64,000 nt of DNA from Elusimicrobiota bacterium (GTDB lineage: Bacteria > Elusimicrobiota > JBDRON01). The translations under genes and the position numbers were made by a program. The stretch is from the NCBI GenBank assembly GCA_043810025.1, contig JBDRON010000033.1, positions 3,431 through 67,430 of the forward strand. The letters run 5' to 3'. The notes below the pieces were generated by a model. The model worked only from the letters and a program-made list of their open reading frames with translations. It did no database searches and had not been told where the DNA came from. Below are positions 2,505 to 59,928 of this stretch, piece after piece. Position 1 is the stretch's first letter. Each line of letters starts with the position of its first letter.

Positions 2505-2571
2505 ATTTTATTTGTTGTTCTGATTCTACTATATTAATAACTATAAAGAAAAGCGAAAAAACAATAATAGG

Positions 2572-3993
2572 TTAGCTTCTAGCAGTGTAGAAACTCCCTC
2601 CCTCTTGATGGGGGATGGTTGGGTTGGGGGTGATTGTGTTTAAGGGGAGAGGATAAAGGTAGAGTTTCCTTGCGGCCATAATCATCCCCAATAAAAACCA
2701 AAAAGGTTCCATGATCCGGATAATGATAAAGGTATTGGAAGGAATGGCATGAACTATTAATCCGGCTGTGGCCGATAACATCCCTAAGGCAAAGCCTTTT
2801 AACCAATAGACTTCAATATTCCGATAGAACAGATAAAGATTTTTCAAAATTGACCAAAGCAGCCAAATAAAAGCAATTAAACCAACTACCCCGGTTTCCC
2901 CCAAGACAAGAGGGTACTGTCCGTCAAGAAATCCTGCGCCGGTCACCCCCCAGCCCAAAAGACTGCGTTGAGGGAATTTTACATAAATCATGTTTTTCCA
3001 ACTTTCCAGCCGTGCACCCGCCGAACTATCAATTTTTTTTTCAAAAACGGAAATTGCCTCAGACGATGTGCCGCTAAAGGTATAAAGAACTCGATCCCTC
3101 ATTTCTTGATATAATTCTTTAGATAACAAAGGTAAAATAATTATCCCAATTACTGTAAAAACAACCAACAACAGCTTCTTCCGGCGAGTAAAAAAAATCA
3201 AAGTCAACAACATCGGGACAAAAGCGACATAGGAAGCGCGGGACAAAGTCCGGATAAAAGGAGGGATTAAAAAGAGCAGCAAAGCAATTAGCAGAAAATT
3301 TGCGCCTTTGGACGAATTATAAGCAAAAAAACCAAAAACCAGGGCAATTACAATTATGTAGTAGCCGCCCAGAGTATTTGGTTCGCCAGATTTACCTTCA
3401 AATGGCGCGGTTACTCTTTCCATGCTCCCGAATTGACTGTAAACATAAACTGTCATGATTAAACAGGTGATCAGGCCAACGATTAAGTATAATTTTATTT
3501 GTTTTTCTGATTGGACAACATTGGAGACCATAAAAAATAGCAAAAAATATCCCAGATACCGTAGCAAATAAAAAGTGCCTTTTATCCAATTAACATTACC
3601 GTTAATCATCGCCAACGCGGAAGAAATAAAGCAAATCGAGATATAAAAAAAAATGGGTTTATTCAGCGGGGTTAAAGAAATCAATCCCAATTCCTTGTAA
3701 ACTGTTATCCTGACTAACCAGCTAAGAATGACCAATATTAAAATTATATCATCCATCCTGATTACTATATCCCGGCCGGGAAGTTCGGCTAATTTTAGCT
3801 CCGGTGAAAAAATCATCGAAACGATTAAAATTATCAAAGCTAAATCCGGCCGAAGAAATCCGAGCAAACAGACCGCTAAACCAACTACTAAAGCGATGCT
3901 AAGGAAAGGTGAAACCTGCGTGAGCAATTTACTCAGCAGCAAACAAAAAATAATTATGAAGATTATTCCCAGAATATTTTTAATCGAGGACAT
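2572..3993 (-). CDS. O-antigen ligase/polymerase family (Wzy_C-like) membrane protein
   Basis: A 473-aa polytopic membrane protein with a large loop containing RTLSRASYVAFV, resembling Wzy/WaaL-family proteins. It lies between wzc and wzx. Confidence 0.6.
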   Translation of the reverse strand: MSSIKNILGIIFIIIFCLLLSKLLTQVSPFLSIALVVGLAVCLLGFLRPDLALIILIVSMIFSPELKLAELPGRDIVIRMDDIILILVILSWLVRITVYKELGLISLTPLNKPIFFYISICFISSALAMINGNVNWIKGTFYLLRYLGYFLLFFMVSNVVQSEKQIKLYLIVGLITCLIMTVYVYSQFGSMERVTAPFEGKSGEPNTLGGYYIIVIALVFGFFAYNSSKGANFLLIALLLFLIPPFIRTLSRASYVAFVPMLLTLIFFTRRKKLLLVVFTVIGIIILPLLSKELYQEMRDRVLYTFSGTSSEAISVFEKKIDSSAGARLESWKNMIYVKFPQRSLLGWGVTGAGFLDGQYPLVLGETGVVGLIAFIWLLWSILKNLYLFYRNIEVYWLKGFALGMLSATAGLIVHAIPSNTFIIIRIMEPFWFLLGMIMAARKLYLYPLPLNTITPNPTIPHQEGGSFYTARS

Positions 3994-4071
3994 AGAATAC
4001 CTGCGGAAAATGAAGGTTGCAAGTTAGTTCGAGCTTTGCTCGGAATTTTAGGCGCCTGCAGCGCATATTTT

Positions 4072-4152
4072 TTCCCTCTTTTAAAAAGAGGGGTAGAGGA
4101 GATTTGATTAATATTTTAAAATCCCCCTTAATCCCCCTTTCAAAAGGGGGAA
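4072..4152. repeat. Dual-hairpin intergenic repeat element, copy A (CCCTCTTTTAAAAAGAGGGG ... CCCCCTTTCAAAAGGGGGAA)
   Basis: An ~80-bp unit of two GC-clamped palindromes, near-identical to copies at 13867..13949 and 29884..29966. It lies 35 nt downstream of the wzc-like stop, between wzc and wzy. Confidence 0.8.
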
Positions 4153-4186
4153 TACTGCAACTAAAAAATGTATTGATCTTTTAAGT

Positions 4187-6112
4187 TTAGGAGACATTGA
4201 ATTTATCGGGTGAAAAAGCGGCGGCTCGTTTTTTTTCCTGGGATTTATTCTCGTCTTTATCCGAATAATACTTGTTGGAATAATAATAACCGTAACGGGA
4301 AGACATCTCCGATACCTTTAAATCGTTCAGCACCACACCCAGTATTTTGGCCTGCGCTCCATCCAGCTGGGTTTTTGCCCGCCGCAGAACGCCGCGGGCC
4401 ATTCTTCCCACCTTATAGACTAAGACCACCCCATCCACTTTTGCGCCGACTAAAAGCGCGTCGGCAAAAAGCAGCACCGGCGGACAATCCAGCACCACCA
4501 GATCAAATTCCTCTTTTAAGGACTTAATCAAATTTTGCATTTGGACCGATCCTAATACATCACCTGGGTTGGGAGGGATAAAGCCGACGGTAATCACCGA
4601 AAGGTTTTCCAGACTCATCGTCTTAATCACCTGCTCAATTTTTAATCCGCCCATCAGAAAATCCGGAGTGCCTTTTAAGGCCTCCCGCCAGGAGACAGTT
4701 CCTAAAACAATATCAGTTAAACCGCAATCGGATTTAACCCCCAGGATTCTTCCTACTGCCGGCCGGCGCAGATCTCCTTCCACCAAAACAACCCGCAGCC
4801 CGGAGGCGGCCGCCGCCAAACTAAAATTGGTGGCGGTTAGAGTCTTGCCTTCTTCGACGCCGGCGCTGGTAAAAGCTACAGTTTTCCCTTTGCCTAAAAA
4901 TGTGGCAAACTTCAAATTTGCCCTCAAGGTATGATAGGCTTCCATGTAAGGGGATTTGGAATTGTGATGAATAATTAAATGCTGGCGAATATTTTCAATT
5001 TTATTCTGATGCGAACCGGCAAATATTTTCCCAAATAGATTATACCGCTCCGCAGGTCCGATATGCGGGATAACGCCCAAGACCGGAATCTTCAAAAAAG
5101 CTTCCACATCTTCAATGGTTCCAATGGAAGTATCCAAATTCTCCAGAATAAAAGCAAAAATCAACCCTAAAAACAGGCCAAGCATCAGGCCAACCAGTAA
5201 ATTCAGTTGCTTATTCGGACGGATCGGACGAATCGGTTCGACGGCTCCGCTGACCGGAGAAGCCATTCGGAACTCATCCGCAGCATCGATTTCCGCTTCT
5301 TTATATCTTTTGGAAAGCAACGTATATAATTCTTCATTTATCCTTAATTCCCGGGACAAACGGGCCAGTTCTAATTCAGTTTTGGGCAGACGGCTCTGTT
5401 CATTTTCCGCATATTTAATTTGTTGTTGGACCTTGATTACCTCCGGATGCTGCGCGGTATATTTTTTAATAATGTTCGCCTTTTGAGTTCGCAGATCGGA
5501 AAGTTTGTTGGCCCAGTAACTGCCCATGCCGCTGGTTCCATTTTTCTCGATATAGACTTTTTTCTCCTCTTCCGCTTTCTGCAGTTTTGTCCTGATTTGT
5601 TCCAGTTGTTTACCGATATAATCTCTCTTCTCCCTCTTGAGAAGAGAATATTCCTTCGCTCCCTTTTTGACGTAGACATCAACCAGAGTATTGGCGATTA
5701 AAGCGGCCTTAGGCGCCTTATCGGAATTGACCGAAATCTGAATTAAATTGCTATCCCCGATTTTATCCACCTGGACACCACTGATAATTGAATTAACTTT
5801 TTCGGCTATTTCCGCGTTGGAAGAATCTTCCTGGATCCAATTTAACCGCAAAGCTGTTTGCCGGACGATCGATTCGCTTTTTATTACCCTGACCTCAGTA
5901 TTGATCAAAGTCCATAAATCCACCTGGCCGTAAGCCGAAAGATCTCTCGGCTGATCCAACTTAATTACGGCCTTCGCCTGGTAAACAGGAGATTGCAAAT
6001 TAGTAAAAACTATCGTTGAAACCAAAACCAATCCAAAAATAAAGCTGACAAGAAGCTTGCGTTTTTTTATTATCCGCCAATAATCATGAAGGTTCAATTC
6101 ATAATCAGCCAT
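4187..6112 (-). CDS. wzc: Polysaccharide co-polymerase / BY-kinase (Wzc/GumC/EpsG-like) with N-terminal Wzz domain and C-terminal P-loop tyrosine kinase
   Basis: N-terminal TM plus a coiled-coil chain-length-determinant region. Walker A (TSAGVEEGKT), Walker A' (VVLVEGDLRRP) and Walker B (LVVLDCPP) are present. A Tyr-rich C-terminal tail is characteristic of BY-kinases. Confidence 0.8.
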   Translation of the reverse strand: MADYELNLHDYWRIIKKRKLLVSFIFGLVLVSTIVFTNLQSPVYQAKAVIKLDQPRDLSAYGQVDLWTLINTEVRVIKSESIVRQTALRLNWIQEDSSNAEIAEKVNSIISGVQVDKIGDSNLIQISVNSDKAPKAALIANTLVDVYVKKGAKEYSLLKREKRDYIGKQLEQIRTKLQKAEEEKKVYIEKNGTSGMGSYWANKLSDLRTQKANIIKKYTAQHPEVIKVQQQIKYAENEQSRLPKTELELARLSRELRINEELYTLLSKRYKEAEIDAADEFRMASPVSGAVEPIRPIRPNKQLNLLVGLMLGLFLGLIFAFILENLDTSIGTIEDVEAFLKIPVLGVIPHIGPAERYNLFGKIFAGSHQNKIENIRQHLIIHHNSKSPYMEAYHTLRANLKFATFLGKGKTVAFTSAGVEEGKTLTATNFSLAAAASGLRVVLVEGDLRRPAVGRILGVKSDCGLTDIVLGTVSWREALKGTPDFLMGGLKIEQVIKTMSLENLSVITVGFIPPNPGDVLGSVQMQNLIKSLKEEFDLVVLDCPPVLLFADALLVGAKVDGVVLVYKVGRMARGVLRRAKTQLDGAQAKILGVVLNDLKVSEMSSRYGYYYSNKYYSDKDENKSQEKKRAAAFSPDKFNVS

Positions 6113-6136
6113 CAGTAATCCTCTTTATGCCGCTGT

Positions 6137-7318
6137 CTAAAAATAAATCACCAGCAGAAGAATAAAATTAACCATCGATATCCAGGGTAGAAAATTGTTT
6201 AGCCAGGCGGCACCTTTCGCCGCGCCTTTTTGCGGCACATAAACTATATCGCCGGGCTTTAATTCAATGTCTTTATCCAATCTTCCTTTATCCAAAATCT
6301 CGGAAAGATTAACTGTAAATACCTGTCGTTTTCCCCCGCTTTCCCGAAAAATCCGAATTTTTCTGATGACCGCATTCGGCGATGTTCCGCCAGCCAGAGA
6401 AACTAATTCGACAACTTTTAATTTTTCTTTATGCTCGTAAGAACCTGGTTTATTCACTTCACCAAAAAGATAAATTTCCTTTGCGCCTCTGGGTATATCG
6501 ACAATATCTCCCACTTCCAGCAAAAAATCTTTGCTTTTTTCCTTTTCTCCCAGATCGATTAGAATAACCTCTCGTTCTGAGTCTTTCCCTCGATAAATTT
6601 TTACCGGTTTTAGCACAGCATGATCGGTAAGACCGCCGGCATGGGTAATTAACTGCCAAAGCCGCAGTTCTTCGCCATATTCATACGCGCCCGGGCGAGC
6701 AACCTCTCCTAAGACAAAAACCGACCTTTGGCTAAAGCGCTTGACGATAACCGACACCTGCGGATTAGAAACATAAAATGAAAGTTTCTTTGTTAAAATT
6801 CCGGCCAATCGCTCGACTGTTAAACCGGCCGCCATAATTTTGCCGATTAAAGACAGCGCAATATTCCCATCAGGCTGAACGATTACATCGCGGTTAAATT
6901 CTTCTGTTGGTGAAACCGAAATCCCGAGCAAATCACCGATAGAAATTATATAATCTTTTTTATCTTTGCCGGCAGCAAGCAGCCCCGCCGCTTCCGGTTT
7001 TTCCTTTTTTTGCTCAATTAATCCAGCTAACTTACCTTCTTTCTGAACCGGTTCCTTATCCCCGCTTTTCCCCATTTTCAGCTTTTCCAATTCCTCTTTC
7101 CAAACAGCAAGTTCTTTCAGGTCTTCCCCGTCATATTTATCGATAATCCGTTCCAACAGATACCGCCGGTCGTTGATGTTTAAATTCTTCTGCTTAACCA
7201 TCCTTTGATAATAACTTAAATCTTTTTGAAAGGATGTTTCCGGATCGTCGGCCAGCCCTAAATTAGCCGCCAGCAGCAAACAAATAAAAACAGAAGTAAA
7301 CATATTTGTTATTTTCAT
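6137..7318 (-). CDS. wza: Polysaccharide export outer-membrane protein (Wza-like; Poly_export + SLBB domains)
   Basis: Has an N-terminal signal peptide. The SIGDLLGISV...PDGNIALSLIGKIMAAGLTVERL motif is Poly_export-like. It is the first gene of the minus-strand EPS operon. Confidence 0.8.
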   Translation of the reverse strand: MKITNMFTSVFICLLLAANLGLADDPETSFQKDLSYYQRMVKQKNLNINDRRYLLERIIDKYDGEDLKELAVWKEELEKLKMGKSGDKEPVQKEGKLAGLIEQKKEKPEAAGLLAAGKDKKDYIISIGDLLGISVSPTEEFNRDVIVQPDGNIALSLIGKIMAAGLTVERLAGILTKKLSFYVSNPQVSVIVKRFSQRSVFVLGEVARPGAYEYGEELRLWQLITHAGGLTDHAVLKPVKIYRGKDSEREVILIDLGEKEKSKDFLLEVGDIVDIPRGAKEIYLFGEVNKPGSYEHKEKLKVVELVSLAGGTSPNAVIRKIRIFRESGGKRQVFTVNLSEILDKGRLDKDIELKPGDIVYVPQKGAAKGAAWLNNFLPWISMVNFILLLVIYF

Positions 7319-9631: not shown

Positions 9632-9931
9632 ATGAGTATAATGTTAAGAAGATTATTTAAACACGGCGGCAGTTACGCGGTAGATCTGCCAATGAATTTT
9701 GTGAGGAACGCAGGGAATCTCGAAGTTATTCTGGAGAACACCGCCAAGAGAATAAGTATCCGTCCTAAGACAGAATTAGATACTCTCGAGTCCGATCCGC
9801 TGTTCGCTAAATTTATTAATGCCCTGGCTGTTGATGCGATGAAACATCCAGAAAAACTGCACGAAGCAAAGCATATCTGGGATAAAGAATGGGATGAACT
9901 TCTTAAGGGAGTTACCGCGGATGGGGAGTAA
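9632..9931 (+). CDS. prlF: AbrB/MazE/PrlF-like swapped-hairpin antitoxin
   Basis: KHGGSYAVDLPMNFV resembles the looped-hinge AbrB/MazE fold. The gene lies directly upstream of, and overlaps, a YhaV-family toxin gene. Confidence 0.55.
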   Translation: MSIMLRRLFKHGGSYAVDLPMNFVRNAGNLEVILENTAKRISIRPKTELDTLESDPLFAKFINALAVDAMKHPEKLHEAKHIWDKEWDELLKGVTADGE

Positions 9932-10376
9932 TTACCTTTTAAGATACCATGATTTTTATTTCCAGCGGATAACAAAACTGAAAGAGCAGGTAAAGGAACT
10001 GCGCGCTAAACTTAGTATTGAAGAATTCAGACAACACGAAGTTGTAAAACTTGCCTATCGCATCCGTGAAGCGGATCAAGAGATAATTCCACAGAACCCG
10101 GACCGTCCGGACTATCGCCTAACAGGAAATCTCAAAAAATACCGCCGTTACAAGCAGGGTCTGCAGCGTTACCGGTTATTCTTTTGTTTTTCCAACCAAC
10201 CCAAGATTATTCTATATCTATACTTAAACGACGAAAAGCATCTGCGCAAGGCGCAAGATAAGAATGATCCCTACGAAGAGTTTAGCCGGCTTGTATCTAA
10301 GGGTTATTTTTCGCACAACCCAAATGATTCTCAAATTCAAAAGTGGATAAAAGATTATCGTAAAGAAGATATTTAA
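9921..10376 (+). CDS. yhaV: YhaV-family ribonuclease toxin (type II TA)
   Basis: RYRLFFCFSNQPKIILYLYLNDEKHLRKAQDKNDPY matches E. coli YhaV (RYRLFFRYSEKEKVIILGWMNDENTLRTYGKKTDAY) from memory. The preferred start is ATG 9921 (MGSNY), with an upstream GGGAG. The ORF-track start at 9894 is the alternative. Confidence 0.7.
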   Translation: MGSNYLLRYHDFYFQRITKLKEQVKELRAKLSIEEFRQHEVVKLAYRIREADQEIIPQNPDRPDYRLTGNLKKYRRYKQGLQRYRLFFCFSNQPKIILYLYLNDEKHLRKAQDKNDPYEEFSRLVSKGYFSHNPNDSQIQKWIKDYRKEDI

Positions 10377-10810: not shown

Positions 10811-10853
10811 TTGACAAGGTGTATCATTTCTGATACACTTACATTGTCAAAAC
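10811..10853 (+). promoter_or_regulatory. Promoter with palindromic operator (TTGACA...GTGTATCA-TTTC-TGATACAC...TACACT) for the RHH/RelE operon
   Basis: TTGACA is at 10811..10816, an 8-bp perfect inverted repeat sits inside the spacer, and the -10 TACACT is at 10834..10839. This is the classic autoregulatory layout of TA operons. Confidence 0.6.
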
Positions 10854-10867
10854 AGGAGGTGATTGTA

Positions 10868-11107
10868 ATGACCACAAAACATCCAAGAATTAATCTGGTA
10901 ATCGAAGAACCGATATTCCATATTTTGAAAGACTTGTCGAAAGCTAATTCTCTTTCTCTGTCTTCTCAGGTTAAAAATTTAGTTCTTAAAGCTCTGGAAG
11001 ACATCGAAGATATGGGACTTAACCGGATCGCTGATTATCGAGAAAAAACCTTTAACCGGAAAAATGCTTTATCGTTTGATGAAATGATGAAGAGGTTAGA
11101 TAAATAA
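10868..11107 (+). CDS. Ribbon-helix-helix (CopG/RelB/ParD-like) antitoxin
   Basis: The N-terminal beta-strand MTTKHPRINLVIEEPIF is followed by helices and paired with a downstream RelE/ParE toxin gene. The start was chosen at ATG 10868 after SD AGGAGG; the ORF track extends to 10811 through the promoter. Confidence 0.6.
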   Translation: MTTKHPRINLVIEEPIFHILKDLSKANSLSLSSQVKNLVLKALEDIEDMGLNRIADYREKTFNRKNALSFDEMMKRLDK

Positions 11108-11111
11108 TTTT

Positions 11112-11390
11112 ATGGAATACAAAATTATTTTCGATGAACGTGTTCTCAAAAACGATTTCAAAGCAATCAATCAAAACCTCCAGCAAAGAATAATGACGGC
11201 AATTAAGACCCGTTTAACAGTTTCACCGGAACAATACGGAGCACCGCTGCATAAAACCTTAAAATCTTTCTGGAAATTGCGGGTGGGAGACTACCGGGTC
11301 GTTTTTAAAATCTTTAAAACAGAAATTCACATCTTCGCCATCATGCACCGTAAAAAAGTTTACCTCGCCGCTCTGAACCGCATTAAATAA
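11112..11390 (+). CDS. RelE/ParE-family toxin
   Basis: The 92-aa protein carries LRVGDYRVVF...IFAIMHRKKVY, typical of RelE/ParE. It lies 4 nt after the antitoxin stop. Confidence 0.8.
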   Translation: MEYKIIFDERVLKNDFKAINQNLQQRIMTAIKTRLTVSPEQYGAPLHKTLKSFWKLRVGDYRVVFKIFKTEIHIFAIMHRKKVYLAALNRIK

Positions 11391-13664: not shown

Positions 13665-13808
13665 TTATGACAATCTTTTTCGAGAGTTGCAAGCCGACTG
13701 ACTGATTGGCGGAACACTCCAGCATTTGCCGCAGGCTAAAGCGGTTGTTTCTAAAATTTTTTCTGAAATAATCTCCGGTTTTTTGTAAGGTTTTTTTTTC
13801 TTAGGCAT
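13665..13808 (-). CDS. Unannotated 47-aa Lys-rich/Cys-containing peptide (MPKKKKPYKKPEIISEKILETTALACGKCWSVPPISQSACNSRKRLS); candidate RiPP precursor
   Basis: Hand-translated from the minus strand. The ATG is at 13808..13806, the SD AAAGGAGA lies 6 nt upstream, and the TAA stop is at 13667..13665. Three Cys residues sit in the C-terminal half. It lies downstream of the PqqD-like and rSAM/SPASM genes on the same strand and falls below the 60-aa ORF-track cutoff. Confidence 0.35.
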   Translation of the reverse strand: MPKKKKPYKKPEIISEKILETTALACGKCWSVPPISQSACNSRKRLS

Positions 13809-13866
13809 CGGCTTTCTCCTTTTAAAAAAACAGAACTTAGTCTACCTTCAATGCGCGATTTTTCAT

Positions 13867-13949
13867 TTCCCTCTTTTAAAAAGAGGGGTAGGGGAGATTT
13901 TGACAACATTTTCTAAATCCCCCTCAATCCCCCTTTCTAAAAGGGGGAA
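13867..13949. repeat. Dual-hairpin intergenic repeat element, copy B
   Basis: Same two-palindrome architecture and sequence as copies A and C. It lies 27 nt downstream of the rSAM stop, between the rSAM gene and the small peptide ORF. Confidence 0.8.
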
Positions 13950-13975
13950 CTCATAATGCTACAATATAAATCCTT

Positions 13976-14977
13976 CTACAACTTTCCACTAATTTGGCAA
14001 TAGAGGTTTGCCGGGCCGAATAAATCGCCGTCTTCCAAATAGGCGATCCCCGGACAACGTTGACAGACGGCATAGCGGGAACATTTCGCGCAAACCGGCA
14101 AATCCTGCAGTTTTATTTTTCGAAAATTTTGTAATTCTTGGGAACCGGACCAGATTTCGGCGAATGATTGCCGGCGCAGATCTCCCATTTCTATCGGCAA
14201 CTGCAAACAGGGCAGCACTTTTCCTGCGGCCGTAACCGTAACTAAATTTTTACCGGCGCTGCAAAAAAAATCATCGGAAGAAAAACTTCCGCCAACGGAA
14301 CTGCCGGCAAAGTTTTTACCTTGGGCAAAAGCTTTCCTGATCACCGGCAGGGGAAGCCGGTAAGCTAACGGGCGGCGATCGCCGTTATCGCGCGGCGTCA
14401 CAATAAAATCAAATTTTATTTTCACTCCTAACTGACCGGCCAATTGTTTAAGCTTCTTTTGTTCTCCCGCATTAAGGGTCATCAAAAGCGATTTAATTTT
14501 TACGGATACGGCTCTTTCTTTTAAGAGTTTAATCGCCTTTAAGGAACGAGTAAACGAACCTTTTACCCCGGTAATTTTTTCATGGACGGCCGGAGCGGCC
14601 GCATAAAGACTAATATGCACTTCCTGCAAGCTGAGCCGCGCTAACGCCTCGGCCTCCGTTCTCTCGATTAGCGTACCGTTGGTAAACAGCGATAAGGCAA
14701 ATCCTTTTTGCCGGGCAAGGCGAATAATCTTCAGCGCATCCGGCCGGCTAAAAATTTCCCCGCCGGTAAAAATTAGATACAGGCCTCCGGCTTTAGCTAA
14801 TTGATTGAATAAATCAGTCAGTTCTTCGTAAGACAAAATATCAGCTTTTTGATTTTTTACTTTACAGCAATGGAGACAAGAAAGATTGCAATCATCGGTA
14901 AGTTCGACAATTGTATCCAAAGGAATATTATTTTCCAAAGAAAGCCTAAACATCTCCCCGGAAATTGAAGAGTTCAT
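13976..14977 (-). CDS. Radical SAM / SPASM-domain peptide-modifying enzyme
   Basis: The N-terminal motif is CNLSCLHC (CX3CX2C). The C-terminal Cys-rich twitch/SPASM cluster is CSAG...C...CAKCSRYAVCQRCPG. It overlaps the PqqD-like gene by 4 nt. Confidence 0.85.
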   Translation of the reverse strand: MNSSISGEMFRLSLENNIPLDTIVELTDDCNLSCLHCCKVKNQKADILSYEELTDLFNQLAKAGGLYLIFTGGEIFSRPDALKIIRLARQKGFALSLFTNGTLIERTEAEALARLSLQEVHISLYAAAPAVHEKITGVKGSFTRSLKAIKLLKERAVSVKIKSLLMTLNAGEQKKLKQLAGQLGVKIKFDFIVTPRDNGDRRPLAYRLPLPVIRKAFAQGKNFAGSSVGGSFSSDDFFCSAGKNLVTVTAAGKVLPCLQLPIEMGDLRRQSFAEIWSGSQELQNFRKIKLQDLPVCAKCSRYAVCQRCPGIAYLEDGDLFGPANLYCQISGKL

Positions 14978-15246
14978 TTCTTTTCCACAATCCCCTTGCC
15001 CGACAATAGCTCCAAAAAATCCAGCGCATCGGCTAAAACAGTTGATTGATCAACATCGTATACCCCGGCGAGAGAAGCGGAAATTTCTTCCGTAGTATTC
15101 TTTCCATCCAACAACTCCCAAATAAACATCCCCTGCTCGTTAAACTGGTGCAAAGTCGAATCTTTGGGAGTAACCACAAACACCGTCTCCGCTATTTTCC
15201 GCCAAGCGATATTTTTACTTTTTATATACCGGGATTCCTTAATCAT
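14974..15246 (-). CDS. PqqD-family RiPP recognition element (peptide chaperone)
   Basis: The 90-aa protein carries WRKIAETVFVV...LHQFNEQGMFIWELLDGKNTTEEI...YDVD...DFLELL, the PqqD consensus. It is translationally coupled to the rSAM gene. Confidence 0.8.
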   Translation of the reverse strand: MIKESRYIKSKNIAWRKIAETVFVVTPKDSTLHQFNEQGMFIWELLDGKNTTEEISASLAGVYDVDQSTVLADALDFLELLSGKGIVEKK

Positions 15247-15294
15247 ATCTCCAAATCTCCTTTATCTTGTGTCCTGCAGCCTGCTATATGCTAT

Positions 15295-15323
15295 ATTATA
15301 AATCTTAAACCCAAATTTTGCAA
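15295..15323 (-). promoter_or_regulatory. Sigma70-like promoter (TTGCAA-17-TATAAT) of the pqqD-rSAM operon
   Basis: The minus-strand -35 is at 15323..15318 and the -10 TATAAT at 15300..15295. No small ORF lies between it and pqqD. Confidence 0.5.
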
Positions 15324-15455: not shown

Positions 15456-16148
15456 ATGCGGGAAAAAATTCTCATTATTGATGATGAACAAGAAGTTGTT
15501 GATTATCTAAAAGCCTCTTTGGAAAGAGAAAATTTTTCGACCATCACCGCGATGTCCGGGGGAGAAGCAATAAGTTTAGTGCACGAAATTAATCCTGATC
15601 TATTGCTGCTGGATATCGGACTGCCGGATATGTCCGGTTTGGAAGTCTGCCGGATTTTAAAACAGGACAAAAAAACCGCCTCCTTGCCGATCATTATGGT
15701 TACCGCTTTCCGGGATCTGGAGGATAAAATAGAAGGGTTGGAATTAGGCGCCGACGACTACCTAACCAAACCCTTCGAATTAAAAGAATTAACCGCCCGG
15801 ATCAAATCGCTGTTCCGGCGTCTGGATTATGGAGGCGAACCCTGGGAGATTATCGAGAAAGGAATGGTAAGTATTAATATTAATCAGGTAACGGTAAAAG
15901 TTAACGGCATTTTAAAAGAAAATATTACCCACCGCGAATTTGACCTGCTTTACTTACTAATGAAAAAAAGCCCAAAAGTGTTAAGCCGAAATTATCTTCT
16001 GGAAACCATCTGGGGTTCGGAATTCTCCGCCACCCCCCGGGCGGTGGACACGGCGATCAAAAGACTGCGCCAAAAACTGGGCAACGGAGAAGCCAAACTA
16101 ATTAAAACCGTAGAAGGATTTGGCTACAAATTCGACTCGGATAACTGA
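15456..16148 (+). CDS. OmpR/PhoB-family response regulator (receiver + winged helix)
   Basis: The receiver carries the phospho-Asp motif LLLLD. The C-terminal winged-helix ends in RAVDTAIKRLRQKL. The SD is AAAGGAG. Confidence 0.85.
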   Translation: MREKILIIDDEQEVVDYLKASLERENFSTITAMSGGEAISLVHEINPDLLLLDIGLPDMSGLEVCRILKQDKKTASLPIIMVTAFRDLEDKIEGLELGADDYLTKPFELKELTARIKSLFRRLDYGGEPWEIIEKGMVSININQVTVKVNGILKENITHREFDLLYLLMKKSPKVLSRNYLLETIWGSEFSATPRAVDTAIKRLRQKLGNGEAKLIKTVEGFGYKFDSDN

Positions 16149-16155
16149 AAGGGAT

Positions 16156-16839
16156 TTATTCCTCGGCGAAGCGGTAGCCGTAACTTTCCACTGTTTCGAT
16201 CCTTCTGCCCTCAACACCTAACTTATAGCGCAAATGGCGGATATGGACATCGACGGTCCGGGTTGTCCCATAATATTCATATCCCCAAATACTTTCCATC
16301 AAATAAGCGCGGCTTACCACCTTGTTTTTCTTCTTCAACAAAGTATAAAGCAAATCGAATTCTTTAGGGGTAAGTTTTATCGGTTTATCTTTTACCATTA
16401 CCGAATGGGAATCCAAATCGAGAACCAGTTTTCCGGAACAAACAATTTTTTCTTTCTCGCCCTTGGTATCCATTCGCCTGATTACGGCTTTTAACCTGGC
16501 CACAAGCTCCGCCGACCTAAACGGCTTTGTGATGTAATCATCCGCTCCTAACTCCAATCCCAAAACCTTGTCCGCTTCGGTTTTTTTGGAACTCAAAATA
16601 ATCACCGGAATAGCGCTGGTCTGATCATCGCTCTTTAAAGTGCGGCAAATATCGAAACCATCCTTCACCGGCAGTTTAAGATCAAGCAGAATCAAATCCG
16701 GCTTAGATTCCCTGATTTTGCGCATTGTCTCGTCAGCGTTGTTGGCTGAAGAAACGCTAAAATCAGCTTCTCTTAAAACCTCAGTGACCAATTTAACTAA
16801 ATCCGGCTCATCATCAACAACCAGAATTTCCTGTTTCAT
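16156..16839 (-). CDS. OmpR/PhoB-family response regulator
   Basis: Contains ILVVDDEPDL...LILLDLKLP and C-terminal RTVDVHIRHLRYKL. It is the last gene of the minus-strand HK-RR-RR operon. Confidence 0.85.
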   Translation of the reverse strand: MKQEILVVDDEPDLVKLVTEVLREADFSVSSANNADETMRKIRESKPDLILLDLKLPVKDGFDICRTLKSDDQTSAIPVIILSSKKTEADKVLGLELGADDYITKPFRSAELVARLKAVIRRMDTKGEKEKIVCSGKLVLDLDSHSVMVKDKPIKLTPKEFDLLYTLLKKKNKVVSRAYLMESIWGYEYYGTTRTVDVHIRHLRYKLGVEGRRIETVESYGYRFAEE

Positions 16840-16880
16840 CGCGCACCATCCTTATAACTATTTTAAGGTAATCTAACGCC

Positions 16881-17261
16881 TCATGAAGTCAGCAGCACAT
16901 TTTTTATTCTTTCCACCAGCTTAAACAAATATTCAAAATTAATCGGCTTTTCGACAAAATCAAGCGCCCCAAGACGAAAACCTTTTTTCTTCTCTGCCCC
17001 GGTAACTACGGAAACAATCACTACCGGTATTTTACAATATCGTTGATCTTTTTTTAAAGCCTTCAATAACTGAAACCCGTTCATTTTCGGCATCAGAAGA
17101 TCTAAAGTAATCAGGTCGGGTAAATTGTTTCCCATTTTTTCAAGGGCTGATTTCCCTTCCAAAGCGATGTCTACCTGATAACCGGCATCTTCCAAATTTA
17201 TTTTTATCAGATTAGCCACGGGAAATTCATCATCAATAACTAAGATCTTTTTCTTTTCCAT
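16881..17261 (-). CDS. Single-domain CheY-like response regulator receiver
   Basis: A 126-aa protein with KILVIDDEFPV...LITLDLLMPKMNG. It overlaps the HK gene by 29 nt. Confidence 0.8.
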   Translation of the reverse strand: MEKKKILVIDDEFPVANLIKINLEDAGYQVDIALEGKSALEKMGNNLPDLITLDLLMPKMNGFQLLKALKKDQRYCKIPVVIVSVVTGAEKKKGFRLGALDFVEKPINFEYLFKLVERIKNVLLTS

Positions 17262-18786
17262 CTGAAGAACCCTCTGTCCCTTCTTCCCGGCATTTTTTCT
17301 CCTTCGGCACGGTGAAAGAAAAAGTACTCCCCTTCTCCGCTTCGTTCTTTAACCAAATTTTACCGCCATGGGCATCCACAATCCCTTTCGCAATCGCCAA
17401 CCCTAAACCTGTGCCCTTAATCTTGCGCAAAAAAATTTTCCCTTCCTTTATCTGATAAAACTTTGTAAACAGCTTTTCCCGGGCATAGACGGGAATCCCT
17501 ATCCCGGTATCAGAAACATTGACCTGCAAACTATCCCCCAGTTCCTGGACGGAGATGGCAACCTTGCCGCCTTCCGGGGTAAACTTCAAACCGTTGCTGA
17601 TTAGATTTGTCAAAACCTGGATAATTCTTTCCGGATCAATTAGCGCCCTGGGCAGGTTTTCCGGATATTCAGCTGTTAACTGAATTTTGTTTTCTTCCGC
17701 ATTCGCTCGAAAAAGAACGATTAACTCCTCAATCATCAAAGAAATTTTGGTTGGCAAAACATTCAGATCCAGCATGTTTTTTTCAATTTGGGCTAAATCT
17801 AAAACATCGTTGACAAACTGGGTTAACCGCTGGGCATTATTCTTGACAATTACTAAATATTCGCGCTGTTTCGGATTCAATTCTCCGGACTTGCGCCTAA
17901 GCAAAAAATCCACATACCCTTGAATGGCCGTCAACGGCGAACGGAGTTCATGAGTAACACTGGAAACAAAATTATCCCGCAATTTATCCAGTTCAGACAA
18001 CTTGTTCTTCATTTTGTCTAAGACCGTTAAGACCTCGCCAAACTCATTTTTATTTTCCACATCAATCAATTGACTAAGGTTATCATCCTTAATCATTTTT
18101 GCTCCCTCACTGATCATCCGAAGCGGCCGAACCAGGAACAAAGTAAAAAACAAGCTGAATACGCTGAATATCCCGCAAAAATTTAAAACCCATTTATTCA
18201 TCTGCGCATAAATGGGTTTTAAAGATAAAAAGGCCTTTTCTTTCGGCTCGATCGCGGTAAGGGTTAAATTAAACTTATCCGCATTGAGGGTATTAAGAAA
18301 AAACTTCTCCGGATGCGTTTTTGTTTCTGAAATCAGATAAGCCAACTCGGCTTTGTTTTTCTGAGGATAAACCAACAAATTGCCGTTCCTGTCATCAACA
18401 ATAAAAATTCTATTTTCATCGAAATTTTTTAATCCCGAAAAAAAACGGACAAACATTTCCCAATCCAAATTACCAACAAAATATTTGTCACCTTGAGAGA
18501 TAACAACCGCGTTTTTGTTTTTGGCCGATTCAATTATTTTTTTTGATACCGGCTTTTTCCTTGCCGCTTTATCCATGGAAGCCAGCGCCATATTGCTAAA
18601 CTTGATTAGCCGGTTTTTTAAATAAAGATTATTTTGGGTAAGAGACACGGCGATTCTTTCCTGAGTTTGTTTTTTAAGATGATATCTTAAACCAAAATAA
18701 ACAGAAACCAAAGGAAGATTGGAAATAACAAGTAAGAGAAGAACTAATCGATAAAACAGTTTACTGCGCAGATAGAACTTAAACAT
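17233..18786 (-). CDS. Sensor histidine kinase (TM sensor, HAMP, HisKA, HATPase_c)
   Basis: The H-box is SHELRSPLTAIQGY and the G-boxes are DTGIGIP and GTGLGLAIAK. There are two TM segments. Confidence 0.85.
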   Translation of the reverse strand: MFKFYLRSKLFYRLVLLLLVISNLPLVSVYFGLRYHLKKQTQERIAVSLTQNNLYLKNRLIKFSNMALASMDKAARKKPVSKKIIESAKNKNAVVISQGDKYFVGNLDWEMFVRFFSGLKNFDENRIFIVDDRNGNLLVYPQKNKAELAYLISETKTHPEKFFLNTLNADKFNLTLTAIEPKEKAFLSLKPIYAQMNKWVLNFCGIFSVFSLFFTLFLVRPLRMISEGAKMIKDDNLSQLIDVENKNEFGEVLTVLDKMKNKLSELDKLRDNFVSSVTHELRSPLTAIQGYVDFLLRRKSGELNPKQREYLVIVKNNAQRLTQFVNDVLDLAQIEKNMLDLNVLPTKISLMIEELIVLFRANAEENKIQLTAEYPENLPRALIDPERIIQVLTNLISNGLKFTPEGGKVAISVQELGDSLQVNVSDTGIGIPVYAREKLFTKFYQIKEGKIFLRKIKGTGLGLAIAKGIVDAHGGKIWLKNEAEKGSTFSFTVPKEKKCREEGTEGSSDGKEKDLSY

Positions 18787-19039: not shown

Positions 19040-20200
19040 TTAATAGCGGAAGATTGCGGAGATTAGGGATTGATCGGGTAACTGCCCGGGATGAACGGCG
19101 TAAACTGTTCCGCCGTGCAGCAAAGTGTGGAAGGCGGCCAGGTTTAACAAATCATCGTCGCCAGCGATTTCTTTGGGGTGAAGTTCGACCGCTTCGTTGA
19201 TCGAATCGAATATCCCCCATTTTTGAACACCAACGGCTACAAACAATGAATCAACTCTTCCATGGTGAGCGGCCGGGACAATTGATTCCAGTTTATTGGA
19301 AACTTTTTCCGTCTTCGCTAGTTGATTGTAGCGTTTCATCGCCTCTTCTTGTTTTCTTCTAAAAAACGGTTCAACTAACGGCCAGGCCAGAAAGCGCAAT
19401 TCTTCTGCCGTGAGCAACTCCGGATTGCCAGGAACGCTGTCTTCAACCAAATAAGGATAGGTGTTCACTTGCCGGTAAATCGACCCCTGATATTCAACAC
19501 AGGCCAAAACCAGAGGAGAGTGTGCTTCTTTTAAGAAATTATGCAGCCCTTGATTCACCTGCTGAAAAAAACGGCCAATATTGATTTTGAAATCATCAAT
19601 ATCTTCAGCCTGAAGATGACAGATAGATCCCCGCTTCCCGCCTTTCGTCATTCTCGACGATACCCCGCTGTGGAACTGCAGATGAGGTTCGTAAATATCA
19701 TGTTGGATGGTTTCGGCAAGACTTTCCGGCATTCCTTTTACTTTAATTTCCTGGCAACTGTATCGACTGCTTTGCAACAGCCTTACCTTGTTTTGGCTGA
19801 TCGCTAAGACATAGAACTGCCCATCATCCATAACTATGGGAAGAAGCGGCTTCAGATGAAAATGATTACTCACTACCACCAATTCTTCAAACACCAGCGG
19901 CAAACGATAATAGACAAGGGTTTCGGCCGATAAAAAAAAGGCCAGCCCATCGCCTTGATGCTGAAAAAAAAGCGTATCCCCCAATACTGCTTGAAGCGGC
20001 TTTAACATTTTTTCCACTTCAAGTTTAGGCACGCCTTTTTGGAGCAAAAAACCCTCCGCTTGCCTAAACATATTCTTAAATCTGATTTGATCATCCAAAG
20101 TATAAGTTACGCGCCGGTGAGTAGACAAATAAATTGAAACGCACCATCCTTTTTCTCTGGCAATTAATTCCTTAAGATCGGATTTTTGGATTAGGTCCAT
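19040..20200 (-). CDS. Hypothetical protein (386 aa), function unknown
   Basis: A long ORF with its own divergent promoter region shared with the ABC-2 permease gene. No motif I can name with confidence. Confidence 0.5.
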   Translation of the reverse strand: MDLIQKSDLKELIAREKGWCVSIYLSTHRRVTYTLDDQIRFKNMFRQAEGFLLQKGVPKLEVEKMLKPLQAVLGDTLFFQHQGDGLAFFLSAETLVYYRLPLVFEELVVVSNHFHLKPLLPIVMDDGQFYVLAISQNKVRLLQSSRYSCQEIKVKGMPESLAETIQHDIYEPHLQFHSGVSSRMTKGGKRGSICHLQAEDIDDFKINIGRFFQQVNQGLHNFLKEAHSPLVLACVEYQGSIYRQVNTYPYLVEDSVPGNPELLTAEELRFLAWPLVEPFFRRKQEEAMKRYNQLAKTEKVSNKLESIVPAAHHGRVDSLFVAVGVQKWGIFDSINEAVELHPKEIAGDDDLLNLAAFHTLLHGGTVYAVHPGQLPDQSLISAIFRY

Positions 20201-21244: not shown

Positions 21245-22051
21245 TTGGAGCGAAACATGGAAACTTTGGCGTTGCAAATTACGGAAATCAGCAAGAAGTT
21301 TTCTAATCATCCCCGGCAAGTGCTGGAAAAAATAACGTTTTCTGTCCAACCGGGAGAAATCTTTGGTCTGCTTGGACCGAACGGCGCCGGTAAAACCACC
21401 TTATTGAAAATCTTAGCAACTTTAATTTTACCATCTTCTGGCGGGGCAAAAATAAACGGTTATGATTTAATTGCCCAGGAGGAAAAGATCAGATCATCAA
21501 TCGGCGTGGCCTGGGGAGACGACCGGAGTTTTTACTACCATTTAACCGGTGAAGAAAACCTCCAGTTTTTCGGCTCTCTCTATGGACTTTCCCGCCAACA
21601 GCTTAAACCGCGCATTCAGGAACTTTATCACTGTCTGAAACTGGATGCGGCAAAAGAAAGAAAATATCAGTATTTCTCCACCGGGATGCGTCAGAAACTC
21701 GGGCTGGCCCGAGCCGTATTGCCTAACCCCCCGATCCTTTTCATTGACGAACTGACCCGGGGAATTGATCCCTCCACCACAATTGAATTGCACCGCTGGA
21801 TCAAAAACGAGCTGGGGATAAAACAGAAGAAAACCATCCTGCTGACCACCCATTCTCTGGACGAAGCGCAAGCCGTATGCTCTAAACTGGCCATCCTCAA
21901 CCAGGGCCATATTTTTGCCCAGGGAAGTATCTCGGAAATACTTCAACAGGCCAGAGCCGAATCCCTTGCTGAGGTGTTTGGAAAATTGGAAGAGCAGGGA
22001 TCAAGGGATCAAGGGACCAAGGGGTCTAGGGGAAAGGAAACATTGAAATAA
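21245..22051 (+). CDS. ABC transporter ATP-binding protein
   Basis: Walker A is GPNGAGKTT, the signature FSTGMRQKL and Walker B ILFIDELT. Its 3' end overlaps the convergent nucleotidyltransferase gene by about 50 nt. Confidence 0.9.
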   Translation: MERNMETLALQITEISKKFSNHPRQVLEKITFSVQPGEIFGLLGPNGAGKTTLLKILATLILPSSGGAKINGYDLIAQEEKIRSSIGVAWGDDRSFYYHLTGEENLQFFGSLYGLSRQQLKPRIQELYHCLKLDAAKERKYQYFSTGMRQKLGLARAVLPNPPILFIDELTRGIDPSTTIELHRWIKNELGIKQKKTILLTTHSLDEAQAVCSKLAILNQGHIFAQGSISEILQQARAESLAEVFGKLEEQGSRDQGTKGSRGKETLK

Positions 22052-22936
22052 AATTTTAAAACCTTTAAACACCAAAGATATTGGTCGGTAGAGATAGAGG
22101 AAAGGAAGCATTAAACAGGAAGATTGATACCGGCGAAGAACGAAGACCGGCGCAGGGAAAAGAAATTTTATCAGAAAATTTAGCTTAAAGAAAAAACCGG
22201 GAATAATCATCGGGCGAAGCAAATGCCCGATATCGCCCACCGGAGCGGAACGCCAAACCCGCGATAAGATTTTTTTTTGCCAACCGGGAATTTTGACCCA
22301 ACTAAGCCGTTCGATAGAGGTAGTAATTTTTTCACACAATTCATCAGAAAACCCCACCTCTATTTTTTGTACCCTGGTCAGAACCTCCCGCAGCGAAAAA
22401 GCCAAATTGTATAACTTGGCCTGCCGATACAATTCTTCCCAATCTAAATTATATTTTTTAATGATCAGAGCGCAATCCATCAGCCATTTATCCTCTAACC
22501 AACCATGATGAATCGCCGCGTGAGCCACAATAAAAATCAGGTTATCCTGAGGACCAAGGCTCCGGGCCTCCACCCCGTCGATTTCGAACAGAAGCGCCCG
22601 GGACCAAAGTTGTTCCAGATTTTTTTTACTCAGGTACCAAATTTCCGTATGCAAATCGATGGCCACCGGACAGCCGGGGCGAATAAAATTCAACTCCCCG
22701 CAGGGTAGAACCTGATAGTTCAGCCGCGCTAAAACCCGTTCAATGTCCGGAAGATCTTTTTTCTGAATTAACAAATCCAGATCGTCTATTGGACGCAGGC
22801 CGGGAGCATAAACTGTTTCCCTTAACGCCGCCCCCTTCAGCACAATGGATTCAATCGCATCTTTGGCAAACTCCCCCAGCAATTCCCTAACTTGCCAGTC
22901 AATCAGAAGCTCCCGGCCGATATCTTCCCTATTCAT
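22001..22936 (-). CDS. Nucleotidyltransferase-fold protein (PF14907-like uncharacterised NTase)
   Basis: VLKGAALRETVYAPGLRPIDDLDLLI carries the G[SA]...DxD pol-beta-type motif. It lies 19 nt downstream of the PorV-like gene. Confidence 0.6.
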   Translation of the reverse strand: MNREDIGRELLIDWQVRELLGEFAKDAIESIVLKGAALRETVYAPGLRPIDDLDLLIQKKDLPDIERVLARLNYQVLPCGELNFIRPGCPVAIDLHTEIWYLSKKNLEQLWSRALLFEIDGVEARSLGPQDNLIFIVAHAAIHHGWLEDKWLMDCALIIKKYNLDWEELYRQAKLYNLAFSLREVLTRVQKIEVGFSDELCEKITTSIERLSWVKIPGWQKKILSRVWRSAPVGDIGHLLRPMIIPGFFFKLNFLIKFLFPAPVFVLRRYQSSCLMLPFLYLYRPISLVFKGFKILFQCFLSPRPLGPLIP

Positions 22937-29858: not shown

Positions 29859-29883
29859 CAGCGAACACCTTCCTTGATATTTA

Positions 29884-59862: not shown

Positions 59863-59928
59863 ACCGGTTTCGAAGATGATAGTCTTTTCATACTGTTCTT
59901 TGTAAATCTCGTATTGGTATTTTTCAAA

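Follow-up and report, generated by a model that had tools for sequence, protein, structure and literature searches.

A PqqD-family protein, a radical SAM/SPASM enzyme and a conserved 47-residue peptide as parts of a candidate new RiPP cassette in an Elusimicrobiota bacterium

Does a small open reading frame (ORF) next to genes for a PqqD-family protein and a radical S-adenosylmethionine (SAM) enzyme encode the substrate of these two proteins? The three genes lie in a DNA stretch of 64,000 nucleotides, here called the window, from an Elusimicrobiota bacterium (assembly GCA_043810025.1, contig JBDRON010000033.1, positions 3,431 to 67,430; coordinates below are those of the window). A sequence-only reading had taken them for a PqqD protein, a radical SAM/SPASM maturase, and a downstream Cys-containing precursor of a peptide that is ribosomally made and modified posttranslationally (RiPP), and this is supported by the conservation of the peptide, its coding signature, and the grouping of the enzyme. 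We consider it probable that the three genes encode the precursor, the recognition protein, and the radical SAM maturase of a conserved, multicomponent RiPP-type cassette. This estimate covers the overall reading, which builds on what was observed of the genes (their identities, folds, conservation, and synteny) and on purifying selection, and does not extend to the individual reactions, which we infer. The three-gene operon proposed earlier stood as the core of the system and proved not to be all of it, as genes for ScmC-like, signal-peptidase-like, and NTP_transf_5 proteins are located elsewhere in the window.

The core operon and its precursor peptide

The PqqD-family gene (positions 14974 to 15246, minus strand) encodes 90 amino acids, and its product matched the Pfam family PqqD (PF05402; E = 2.5e-15) with 57 bits against a gathering cut-off of 23.4. 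The best curated subfamily was the lasso_PqqD_Bac chaperone (27 bits; cut-off, 80). The protein is predicted to be a stand-alone RiPP recognition element (RRE) for the precursor leader. Its stop codon overlaps the start codon of the radical SAM/SPASM gene (13976 to 14977, minus strand) by 4 nt (ATGA), and the latter gene is translationally coupled to the former through this overlap. A sigma-70-like promoter candidate, TTGCAA-17-TATAAT (15295 to 15323, minus strand; 10 of 12 consensus matches), is located 5' of the PqqD gene. The site is present as described earlier, but its driving role is plausible and statistically unsupported, since such sites were not enriched over shuffled sequences in the consensus scan (4 observed, 3.3 +/- 2.1 expected). 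Adjoining the operon in divergent orientation, the region from 15456 to 18786 encodes three response regulators (two of the OmpR type and one CheY-like) and a HAMP histidine kinase; a regulatory link between this cluster and the operon is possible.

The radical SAM enzyme consists of 333 amino acids and contains the Pfam domains Radical_SAM (E = 1.3e-21, 77.9 bits) and SPASM (E = 2.7e-13, 50.4 bits), each above its cut-off. In an alignment of 32 sequences, the three cysteines of the SAM-cluster motif CX3CX2C (C30-x3-C34-x2-C37) were invariant, and so were C239, C257, C296, C299, C305, C308, and C327. The window enzyme thus has both the motif and the seven C-terminal cysteines of the radical SAM/SPASM subfamily, the latter indicating two probable auxiliary [4Fe-4S] clusters, and the earlier description of a coupled enzyme with a C-terminal SPASM/twitch Cys cluster was correct. 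When a profile of the family was compared with Protein Data Bank (PDB) sequences, SkfB (2.6e-39), PqqE (5.5e-29), and CteB (6e-25) were matched, as were SuiB and anSME, and an AlphaFold2 model (predicted local distance difference test [pLDDT], 90) had SkfB, SuiB, CteB, PqqE, and anSME as its top folds. Both its sequence and its predicted fold place the enzyme with the peptide-modifying SPASM/Twitch enzymes SkfB, SuiB, CteB, and PqqE, and not with a sulfatase maturase that has its substrate elsewhere. A curated family, as might have been expected from TIGRFAM/NCBIfam, was not obtained: no NCBIfam radical SAM model reached its cut-off for the window enzyme or for the proteins of five relatives. 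The protein is present at 100% identity in NCBI, where its source is an Elusimicrobiota metagenome-assembled genome (MAG), and homologues with 35 to 45% identity come from Elusimicrobiota, Endomicrobiales, and Omnitrophota. Its length had been regarded as unusually short, but it is normal where the recognition domain is separate; the family ranges from 326 to 350 amino acids, and the curated AhbD, NirJ2, GeoRSP, and MftC models have 325 to 339 positions.

The precursor gene (13665 to 13808, minus strand) encodes 47 amino acids (MPKKKKPYKKPEIISEKILETTALA/CGKCWSVPPISQSACNSRKRLS; translation, MPKKKKPYKKPEIISEKILETTALACGKCWSVPPISQSACNSRKRLS) and is preceded by the Shine-Dalgarno sequence AAGGAG (13817 to 13822), both in agreement with the sequence-only reading. 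The peptide is predicted to comprise a Lys-rich leader of 25 residues with the element Y8-x-x-P11-x-I and a core of 22 residues with C26, K28, C29, C40, and a C-terminal S47, so that the core pattern is C-G-K-C-x10-C-x6-S and the leader motif is Y-x-x-P-x-[ILV]. The ORF had been thought to escape standard gene callers, but it is annotated in NCBI (hypothetical protein ABII74_02890, 100% identity), and homologues were also called. No match to the peptide was found in the Pfam or NCBIfam libraries scanned, and a word-indexed protein search retrieved only the peptide itself. When 1.84 billion representative proteins were searched exhaustively with phmmer, 35 matched at E <= 0.001; at least 31 of these stand for small-peptide clusters (45 to 99 amino acids), with the consensus KKKPYxKPxhxSEKhFETxALACGKCxxGxPxxQxxCxxxxxxS. 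Two longer matches, P0122 and P0152, were considered as fused multicopy precursors and rejected by inspection as unrelated repetitive proteins; P0128 (2291 amino acids, seven matched stretches) was set aside from the peptide set with its sequence unread. A scan for ET[AT]ALACGK found 333 metagenome stretches encoding a relative of the peptide.

Among 72 distinct DNA sequences of the peptide gene, synonymous sites were saturated (median proportion of synonymous differences [pS], 0.77), whereas the proportion of nonsynonymous differences (pN) was 0.29; for 818 unsaturated pairs, the median ratio of the nonsynonymous to the synonymous rate (dN/dS) was 0.23, not near 1. The entropies at the three codon positions were 0.77/0.64/1.51. 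The 47-codon ORF is a real gene under purifying selection, and a chance ORF was rejected, as the protein is conserved while its synonymous sites are saturated. Homologues encoded beside PqqD and radical SAM genes are 45 to 66% identical to the peptide, and the 48-codon ORFs of relatives encode products with 55 to 66% identity to it, which exceeds the conservation of the enzyme (35 to 45%). The gene therefore has the features of a RiPP precursor: it is short, under purifying selection, conserved, and co-located with modifying enzymes across lineages.

Y8, P11, L24, C26, K28, and C40 were invariant in the peptide alignment, and S47 was at least 90% conserved. Among 101 distinct peptides, 95 end in Ser, 89 have three cysteines, and the distance from Tyr to the first Cys is 18 residues in 72 and 20 residues in 26. 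Ala or Gly precedes the first Cys in 91 of these 101 peptides, position -3 is Ala in 78, and the A-L-A|C junction is conserved in the family. From this A-x-A|C pattern, the leader is predicted to be cleaved at A25|C26. A lipobox was rejected as an explanation of the junction because the charged leader lacks a hydrophobic h-region. More distant peptides, found in loci collected through their radical SAM genes, follow the pattern PYxKPxLxxhxLxxEEhhLxxCK..G..C....C...GS; they form one superfamily with the window peptide, as a hidden Markov model (HMM) seeded on the distant peptides alone reached the window subfamily within three rounds.

The spacer of 167 nt between the enzyme and peptide genes (13809 to 13975) contains an 81-nt palindromic repeat (13869 to 13949, minus strand; TTCCCCCTTTTAGAAAGGGGGATTAAGGGGG...CCCCTCTTTTTAAAAGAGGG). 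As noted before, it forms a strong nested hairpin (-54.9 kcal/mol; z = -3.3 versus shuffles). Further copies at ~4040 to 4110 and ~29880 to 29960 bring the number in the window to three, all in the same orientation and each just 3' of a minus-strand gene. The element has no U-tract terminator, and Rfam yielded for the operon only sub-threshold microRNA-hairpin noise on the repeat and no family. The 81-nt element is a generic repeat of this genome, resembling repetitive extragenic palindromic (REP) elements, and is not specific to the operon. Its proposed role in setting the stoichiometry of peptide and enzyme did not hold, and a RiPP-specific attenuator was likewise rejected for a three-copy genome repeat with no U-tract.

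The cassette across phyla and its dispersed partners in the window

Is the association of the three genes conserved, and do other genes belong to it? We built HMMs from neighboring proteins and scanned the six-frame ORFs of 166 loci (numbered with the prefix L). Five components recurred: PqqD, the radical SAM/SPASM enzyme, the peptide, a ScmC-like protein, and a Peptidase_S24/S26-like protein. The genome contigs had been scanned with a generic radical SAM pattern ([RND]CNLxCxHCY), and about half of the resulting 80 loci were unrelated radical SAM genes (e.g., from Nitrospira and archaea). At least 30 of the 36 genome loci that were anchored on the radical SAM gene and had PqqD, radical SAM, and ScmC genes also encoded a related peptide, and in most of these cases the peptide ORF starts within ~250 nt of the radical SAM stop codon. 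These cassettes come from at least 12 phyla. The peptide-anchored sample comprised 25 distinct loci flanked on each side by 3 kb or more: all four partners (PqqD, radical SAM, ScmC, and peptidase) were present in 14, only PqqD and the peptidase in 7, and the peptide was an orphan in 2, with a PqqD gene next to the peptide gene in 22. The expected conservation and co-location of the peptide with the PqqD-radical SAM pair in relatives thus hold.

Four gene orders were seen: (i) ScmC-PqqD-radical SAM-peptide-peptidase, which is window-like and occurs in Elusimicrobiota; (ii) ScmC-PqqD-peptide-peptidase-radical SAM; (iii) PqqD-radical SAM-peptide-ScmC-peptidase, in Omnitrophota, Desulfobacterota, Acidobacteriota, Nitrospirota, Chloroflexota, Verrucomicrobiota, Planctomycetota, and others; and (iv) peptidase-PqqD-peptide alone. 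The conserved arrangement around the 35 to 45% identical radical SAM homologues of Elusimicrobiota, Endomicrobiales, and Omnitrophota is an HD-domain gene, ScmC, PqqD, radical SAM, the 48-codon ORF, and then a giant ORF. The window and most relatives have a single radical SAM gene, and three were found only in Nitrospiraceae loci L025, L041, L050, and L053. In a high-GC lineage (L090, L091, L094, L096, L097, L103, L105, L107 to L110, L117, and L118), the peptide gene is flanked only by genes for PqqD and a peptidase resembling S26B signal peptidases, with no radical SAM or ScmC gene within 6 kb; these two are either encoded elsewhere or dispensable there.

Variants of the platform without a radical SAM gene were found in two further bacteria. 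In the cultured Paenibacillus sp. 598K (L168, 3585 to 8328), a candidate peptide (MKPYVKPSVLTHSKVKFETVISNCVPP...) is followed by NTP_transf_5, ScmC, PqqD, an S26B-like protein, and an ABC exporter, and the locus adjoins PA14 proteins. In Stigmatella (L169, 4845 to 6720), a giant Big/FG-GAP protein, a 45-residue peptide, ScmC, an S26B-like::GNAT fusion, and EamA are encoded.

In the window, the ScmC-like gene (58699 to 59498, minus strand) was located by tblastn with the ScmC proteins of relatives, which matched ~58747 to 59223, and a Peptidase_S24-like ORF (58295 to 58732) is directly downstream. The peptidase gene (58295 to 58702, minus strand) overlaps the ScmC stop codon with its start (ATGA). 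In this lineage, the cassette is thus divided, as the PqqD, radical SAM, and peptide genes (13.7 to 15.2 kb) are ~43 kb away from the ScmC and peptidase genes (58.3 to 59.5 kb).

The ScmC-like product is a P-loop protein with a phosphoenolpyruvate carboxykinase (PEPCK)/HPr-kinase fold. It matched NCBIfam TIGR04249 (5e-8) as well as HprK_rel_A/B, all below cut-off, and Pfam Hpr_kinase_C was present in some homologues. An AlphaFold2 model was obtained for the 87%-identical protein P0158 (pLDDT, 94), and the best 50 Foldseek matches to the PDB by E value were all PEPCK (3e-8) or HprK/P (1e-3). A His, GxSGxGK[ST]T, and D[ED] are conserved in the family. On this modelled fold, the protein is predicted to be a peptide kinase. 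The window copy is frameshifted near 59343 to 59355, in an A-rich stretch, relative to the 87%-identical locus L167, which has the same ScmC-peptidase-giant ORF layout and an intact ScmC (full length, 269 amino acids). The frameshift may be a genuine lesion or an error of MAG assembly.

The peptidase of the window matched Pfam S24 only weakly (E = 0.0016). The profile of its family matched the eukaryotic SEC11 catalytic subunit in the PDB (6.7e-13) and also bacterial signal peptidase I, and the member in L005 matched TIGR02228 (archaeal/endoplasmic reticulum [ER]-type signal peptidase) with 59.5 bits against a cut-off of 51.85, as well as SipW. The motif G-x-[SC]-M-x-P has Ser in 81 of 91 members and Cys in 7, and the His-Arg and Asp positions are kept in 90 and 87 of the 91, respectively. 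The window protein (GGCMRP...HR...D) is among those with a Cys nucleophile instead of Ser. At the family level, both the Ser/His(/Asp) motif and the profile match are thus those of signal peptidase I (S26B), whereas none of the 63 members checked for the transmembrane anchor of S26B had one (18-residue window, Kyte-Doolittle > 1.6, in the 45 residues before the motif). The peptidase is probably soluble and cytoplasmic, since no hydrophobic anchor precedes the catalytic motif, and is predicted from these motifs to be the leader peptidase.

Fusions of the peptidase to NTP_transf_5 (PF14907), sometimes together with GNAT, occur in other phyla. An NTP_transf_5 nucleotidyltransferase gene is present in the window (22001 to 22936, minus strand; PF14907, E = 2.7e-33), and it matched the domain fused to the peptidase of relatives (tblastn, 7e-27). 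It is possibly a sixth component, with an uncertain link to the cassette in this genome.

A giant ORF of 9405 codons (29998 to 58215, minus strand), which follows the ScmC and peptidase genes immediately downstream, encodes a surface-protein-like product with a signal-peptide-like N terminus, Ig-like domains, and many internal repeats (65 to 75% DNA identity). It is homologous to the giant ORFs of L081, L083, and L085 (tblastn, E values down to 1e-155), and in Elusimicrobiota relatives such homologues are directly 3' of the peptide gene, often fused to the peptidase domain at their start. Continuous giant ORFs are present in L081, L083, L085, L087, L138, and L144. Directly downstream of the giant ORF of the window, a gene at 26364 to 29858 (minus strand) encodes a 1164-residue beta-propeller/fn3 protein with a Por_Secre_tail, a C-terminal sorting domain of the type IX secretion system kind. 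On the other side, beside the ScmC gene, short ORFs with Gln-synt_C-ter, GATase_2, and Glu_syn_central fragments (59542 to 60390, minus strand) may be debris of glutamate/glutamine synthase genes and a possible rearrangement breakpoint.

The window also contains genes for a YhaV-family toxin of a toxin-antitoxin module (9894 to 10376, plus strand), a DUF6290 antitoxin-like ORF and the ParE toxin that forms a pair with it (10811 to 11390, plus strand), and a bacterial archaeo-eukaryotic release factor (baeRF) family protein (19040 to 20200, minus strand). A set for exopolysaccharide export and assembly (975 to 7318, minus strand) includes a Polysacc_synt_3 flippase, Wzy_C, a Wzz/GNVR/AAA_31 tyrosine-kinase-type protein, and Poly_export/SLBB; in Paenibacillus, the variant cassette has Wzz and ParA-type genes of a similar kind at its flanks.

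Proposed maturation and competing explanations

How could these components act together? From the likeness to a lasso-type module (PqqD, kinase fold, NTP_transf_5, YxxPx[ILV] leader, and C-terminal Ser), we propose a mechanism in four steps. Judging from its family, the stand-alone PqqD protein would bind the leader and hand the peptide over to the enzymes that tailor it. Intramolecular cross-links at the core cysteines would then be formed by the radical SAM/SPASM enzyme, which has one SAM cluster and two auxiliary ones. Thioethers of the sactipeptide or ranthipeptide type are the most likely kind, because SkfB and CteB are the nearest relatives and the cysteines are the invariant core residues, and we rate this step at somewhat below an even chance. 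With much the same caution, the ScmC-like kinase-fold protein may phosphorylate the peptide, the likeliest target being the near-invariant C-terminal Ser, as in lasso peptides, and NTP_transf_5 may extend the phosphate. Finally, the S26B-like peptidase (with a Cys/His active site here) could remove the leader at A-L-A|C and release the core of 22 residues, a step to which we give about even odds; the junction fits the rule of small residues at -1 and -3 of type I signal peptidases. Much more tentatively, the product may serve giant surface proteins and not act as a toxin, as in Elusimicrobiota, Paenibacillus, and Stigmatella the platform recurs next to such proteins or is fused with them; for example, it may be a cofactor, an anchor, or a maturation factor for these proteins.

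Several points weigh against this interpretation, or against parts of it. The type of cross-link is not readable from sequence, and we infer its chemistry. The stable repeat hairpin separates the operon from the peptide gene, whose co-transcription with it is putative. The sample of peptides is biased toward the ET[AT]ALACGK subfamily because of the search pattern. Seven of the 25 well-flanked peptide loci have no radical SAM or ScmC gene within 3 kb, and the link between the radical SAM enzyme and the peptide is therefore strong and not obligate in cis. The distant variants of Paenibacillus and Stigmatella, which lack the radical SAM gene, have ScmC, and their candidate peptides do not end in Ser, which weakens the assignment of the C-terminal Ser as the target. 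The strongest NCBIfam matches of the radical SAM protein are to heme enzymes, as detailed below. Finally, the frameshift in the ScmC gene and the Cys nucleophile of the peptidase, where Ser is usual, may mean that the system is partly in decay here or that the assembly is erroneous.

Could the peptide instead be the precursor of an intracellular, peptide-derived cofactor or metal binder, similar to pyrroloquinoline quinone (PQQ) or mycofactocin, and not of a secreted bioactive product? The cysteines, the Lys, and the C-terminal Ser of the core are kept over at least 12 phyla, which is cofactor-like rather than like a fast-evolving bacteriocin, the conserved core cassette includes no dedicated exporter or immunity gene, and a peptidase with no membrane anchor points to cytoplasmic processing. 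In addition, several relatives have MftC and PqqE among their best curated matches over the full length, and CxxC with a further Cys could bind metal. However, the scores of MftC (104 versus 265 bits) and PqqE (103 versus 381 bits) are below cut-off, the peptide has neither an E-x3-Y nor a GVY motif, and no conserved cofactor-dependent dehydrogenase was seen among the cassette partners; an ABC exporter is encoded in the Paenibacillus variant, and an ABC transporter near NTP_transf_5 in the window. We regard this explanation as unlikely, though the most probable of the alternatives. A little less probable still is that this genome retains the operon only as a decaying remnant, broken by rearrangement and with an ScmC pseudogene, from which no mature product arises. 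The cassette is spread here over 46 kb and is contiguous in most relatives, the ScmC gene is frameshifted with gene debris beside it (59542 to 60390), and the peptidase nucleophile is Cys. Yet the ORFs for PqqD, the radical SAM enzyme, and the peptide are intact and retain every invariant residue, the split layout recurs with an intact ScmC in the 87%-identical L167, the frameshift lies at an A-run and is possibly a MAG assembly error, and the Cys nucleophile recurs in 7 of the 91 peptidase family members.

It is improbable that the radical SAM/SPASM enzyme matures a protein, such as the giant surface protein or another enzyme, in the manner of anSME or QhpD, with the small ORF as a conserved but unrelated neighbor. 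The structural match to anSME is good (template modeling [TM] score, 0.69 to 0.71), and giant proteins recur as neighbors in the Elusimicrobiota, Paenibacillus, and Stigmatella loci, but most cassettes outside the Elusimicrobiota have no giant neighbors, and it is the peptide that is the conserved partner across phyla, with its gene abutting the radical SAM or the PqqD gene in most cassettes; PqqD-type RREs, moreover, bind short leaders, and the YxxP motif of the leader stands at a fixed spacing. That the enzyme is an AhbD/NirJ-type tetrapyrrole (heme) enzyme with an incidental PqqD pairing, as could be read from its top NCBIfam matches (AhbD, 138 bits; NirJ2, 126 bits) and from one JGI relative labelled "AdoMet-dependent heme synthase," is very improbable and was rejected, since these scores are far below the cut-offs of 500 bits and confined to the N-terminal half (best stretch, residues 25 to 199, the generic radical SAM core), no tetrapyrrole genes were found among the window ORFs scanned with Pfam, and the synteny of the enzyme with PqqD and the peptide is invariant.

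The RiPP-type reading assigns a concrete precursor to a family of radical SAM/PqqD cassettes of at least 12 bacterial phyla, mostly uncultured. The system can be described as an RRE-dependent radical SAM RiPP and a candidate for a new RiPP class. Only tentatively, and with the odds clearly against it, do we suggest that it is the founding example of such a class, defined by a YxxP leader, PqqD, ScmC, and a cytoplasmic leader protease, in which the radical SAM enzyme would cross-link Cys residues and the Ser would be phosphorylated and perhaps decorated by NTP_transf_5. If the proposed steps hold, both a RiPP class and a leader peptidase of a new type would be gained, and the function of the ScmC family would be explained. 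The cultured Paenibacillus sp. 598K and Stigmatella give experimental access to parts of the system through their variants that lack the radical SAM enzyme.

Relationship to known systems

To which known system is the cassette closest? Our literature searches found nothing describing this system, SynChlorMet/ScmC, or a radical SAM/SPASM enzyme with a signal peptidase and HprK, and the combination of a radical SAM/SPASM enzyme, an HPr-kinase-fold protein, and a soluble ER-type signal peptidase homologue is new relative to the libraries and literature searched. Membership in the SynChlorMet (SCM), PQQ, mycofactocin, sactipeptide, ranthipeptide, and SCIFF systems was rejected, as the scores and motifs fell short of the curated definitions.

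The nearest curated relative is SynChlorMet (TIGR04248 ScmD, TIGR04249 ScmC, TIGR04250 ScmE, and TIGR04251 ScmF; PF27840 ScmC), with which the cassette shares a PqqD-like protein, a PqqE-like radical SAM/SPASM enzyme, and the ScmC family. The window proteins gave weak family-specific matches, and a precomputed PF27840 domain is present on ScmC homologues of relatives. The scores were 107.3 bits for the radical SAM protein against ScmE and 77.4 bits against ScmF (cut-offs, 400), 24.6 bits for PqqD against ScmD (cut-off, 100), and 32.6 bits for ScmC (cut-off, 125). According to its TIGRFAMs description, the SynChlorMet cassette has two PqqE-like radical SAM/SPASM genes, whereas the window cassette has one, and the SynChlorMet precursor is not known to have been identified. 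The present analysis defines a conserved precursor family and a partner resembling signal peptidases, neither of which matched a cassette-specific NCBIfam or Pfam model scanned. Since all cut-offs were missed widely and there is a single radical SAM gene, the window cassette is a relative and not a member of SynChlorMet.

The PQQ (PqqD/PqqE) and mycofactocin (MftB/MftC) systems similarly have a separate PqqD-type chaperone, a SPASM enzyme of ~340 to 380 amino acids, coupled genes, and a short precursor with a conserved C-terminal region. However, the matches to PqqE (103 versus 381 bits), PqqD TIGR03859 (24.7 versus 46 bits), and MftC (104.2 versus 265 bits) were below the cut-offs. The window peptide has a single Tyr, which is in the leader (Y8), and no E-x3-Y of PqqA, and it ends in RLS, not in GVY. 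A kinase-like protein and an S26B-like peptidase replace PqqB/C/F or MftD/E/F.

With the sactipeptide and ranthipeptide systems (SkfB, AlbA, CteB, and PapB), the cassette shares a radical SAM/SPASM or Twitch enzyme acting on Cys-containing ribosomal peptides, SkfB and CteB being top PDB matches, and with SCIFF a short conserved Cys-rich peptide encoded beside its maturase. Whereas the maturases of the former have an N-terminal fused RRE and 400 to 470 amino acids, the RRE is a separate PqqD protein here. The window enzyme scored 91.6 bits against StsB (cut-off, 625) and 74.6 bits against AlbA (cut-off, 850), and those of relatives scored at most 70 bits against SkfB (cut-off, 300) and at most 65 bits against PapB (cut-off, 340). 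The window peptide matched no curated precursor family of these groups, and its thioether would be a predicted one.

The module around PqqD resembles that of the phosphorylated lasso peptides, namely, paeninodin (PadeK/B1), pseudomycoidin (PsmK/PsmN), and the BsfK/BsfB1/BsfN system. There, the HPr-kinase-like enzymes PadeK, ThcoK, and BsfK act on the linear lasso precursor and phosphorylate its conserved C-terminal Ser, the PqqD-type RRE strongly stimulates this phosphorylation, and the nucleotidyltransferase PsmN decorates the phosphoserine; the leaders carry YxxPxL at -17 to -12, and the kinases share a His-Lys-Asp-Asp motif (PMC9266682, PMC10368454). The window system has a PqqD RRE, an HPr-kinase-like fold with H-K-D-D/E, an NTP_transf partner, the YxxPx[ILV] leader, and the conserved C-terminal Ser, so that each hallmark of the phosphorylated lasso peptides (kinase, RRE, leader motif, and Ser) has its counterpart. 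No lasso cyclase (Asn-synthetase-like C protein) or B2 transglutaminase-like protease was found with Pfam among the window ORFs of at least 100 amino acids, a scan that covered all but some ten ORFs of this size apart from the giant gene (9673 to 9975 and 63226 to 63552 are among the ten), or among the conserved partners in the 166 loci. The leader motif is located at -18 to -13 here, compared with -17 to -12 in lasso peptides, and the radical SAM/SPASM enzyme and the S26B-like peptidase stand in for the cyclase and B2.

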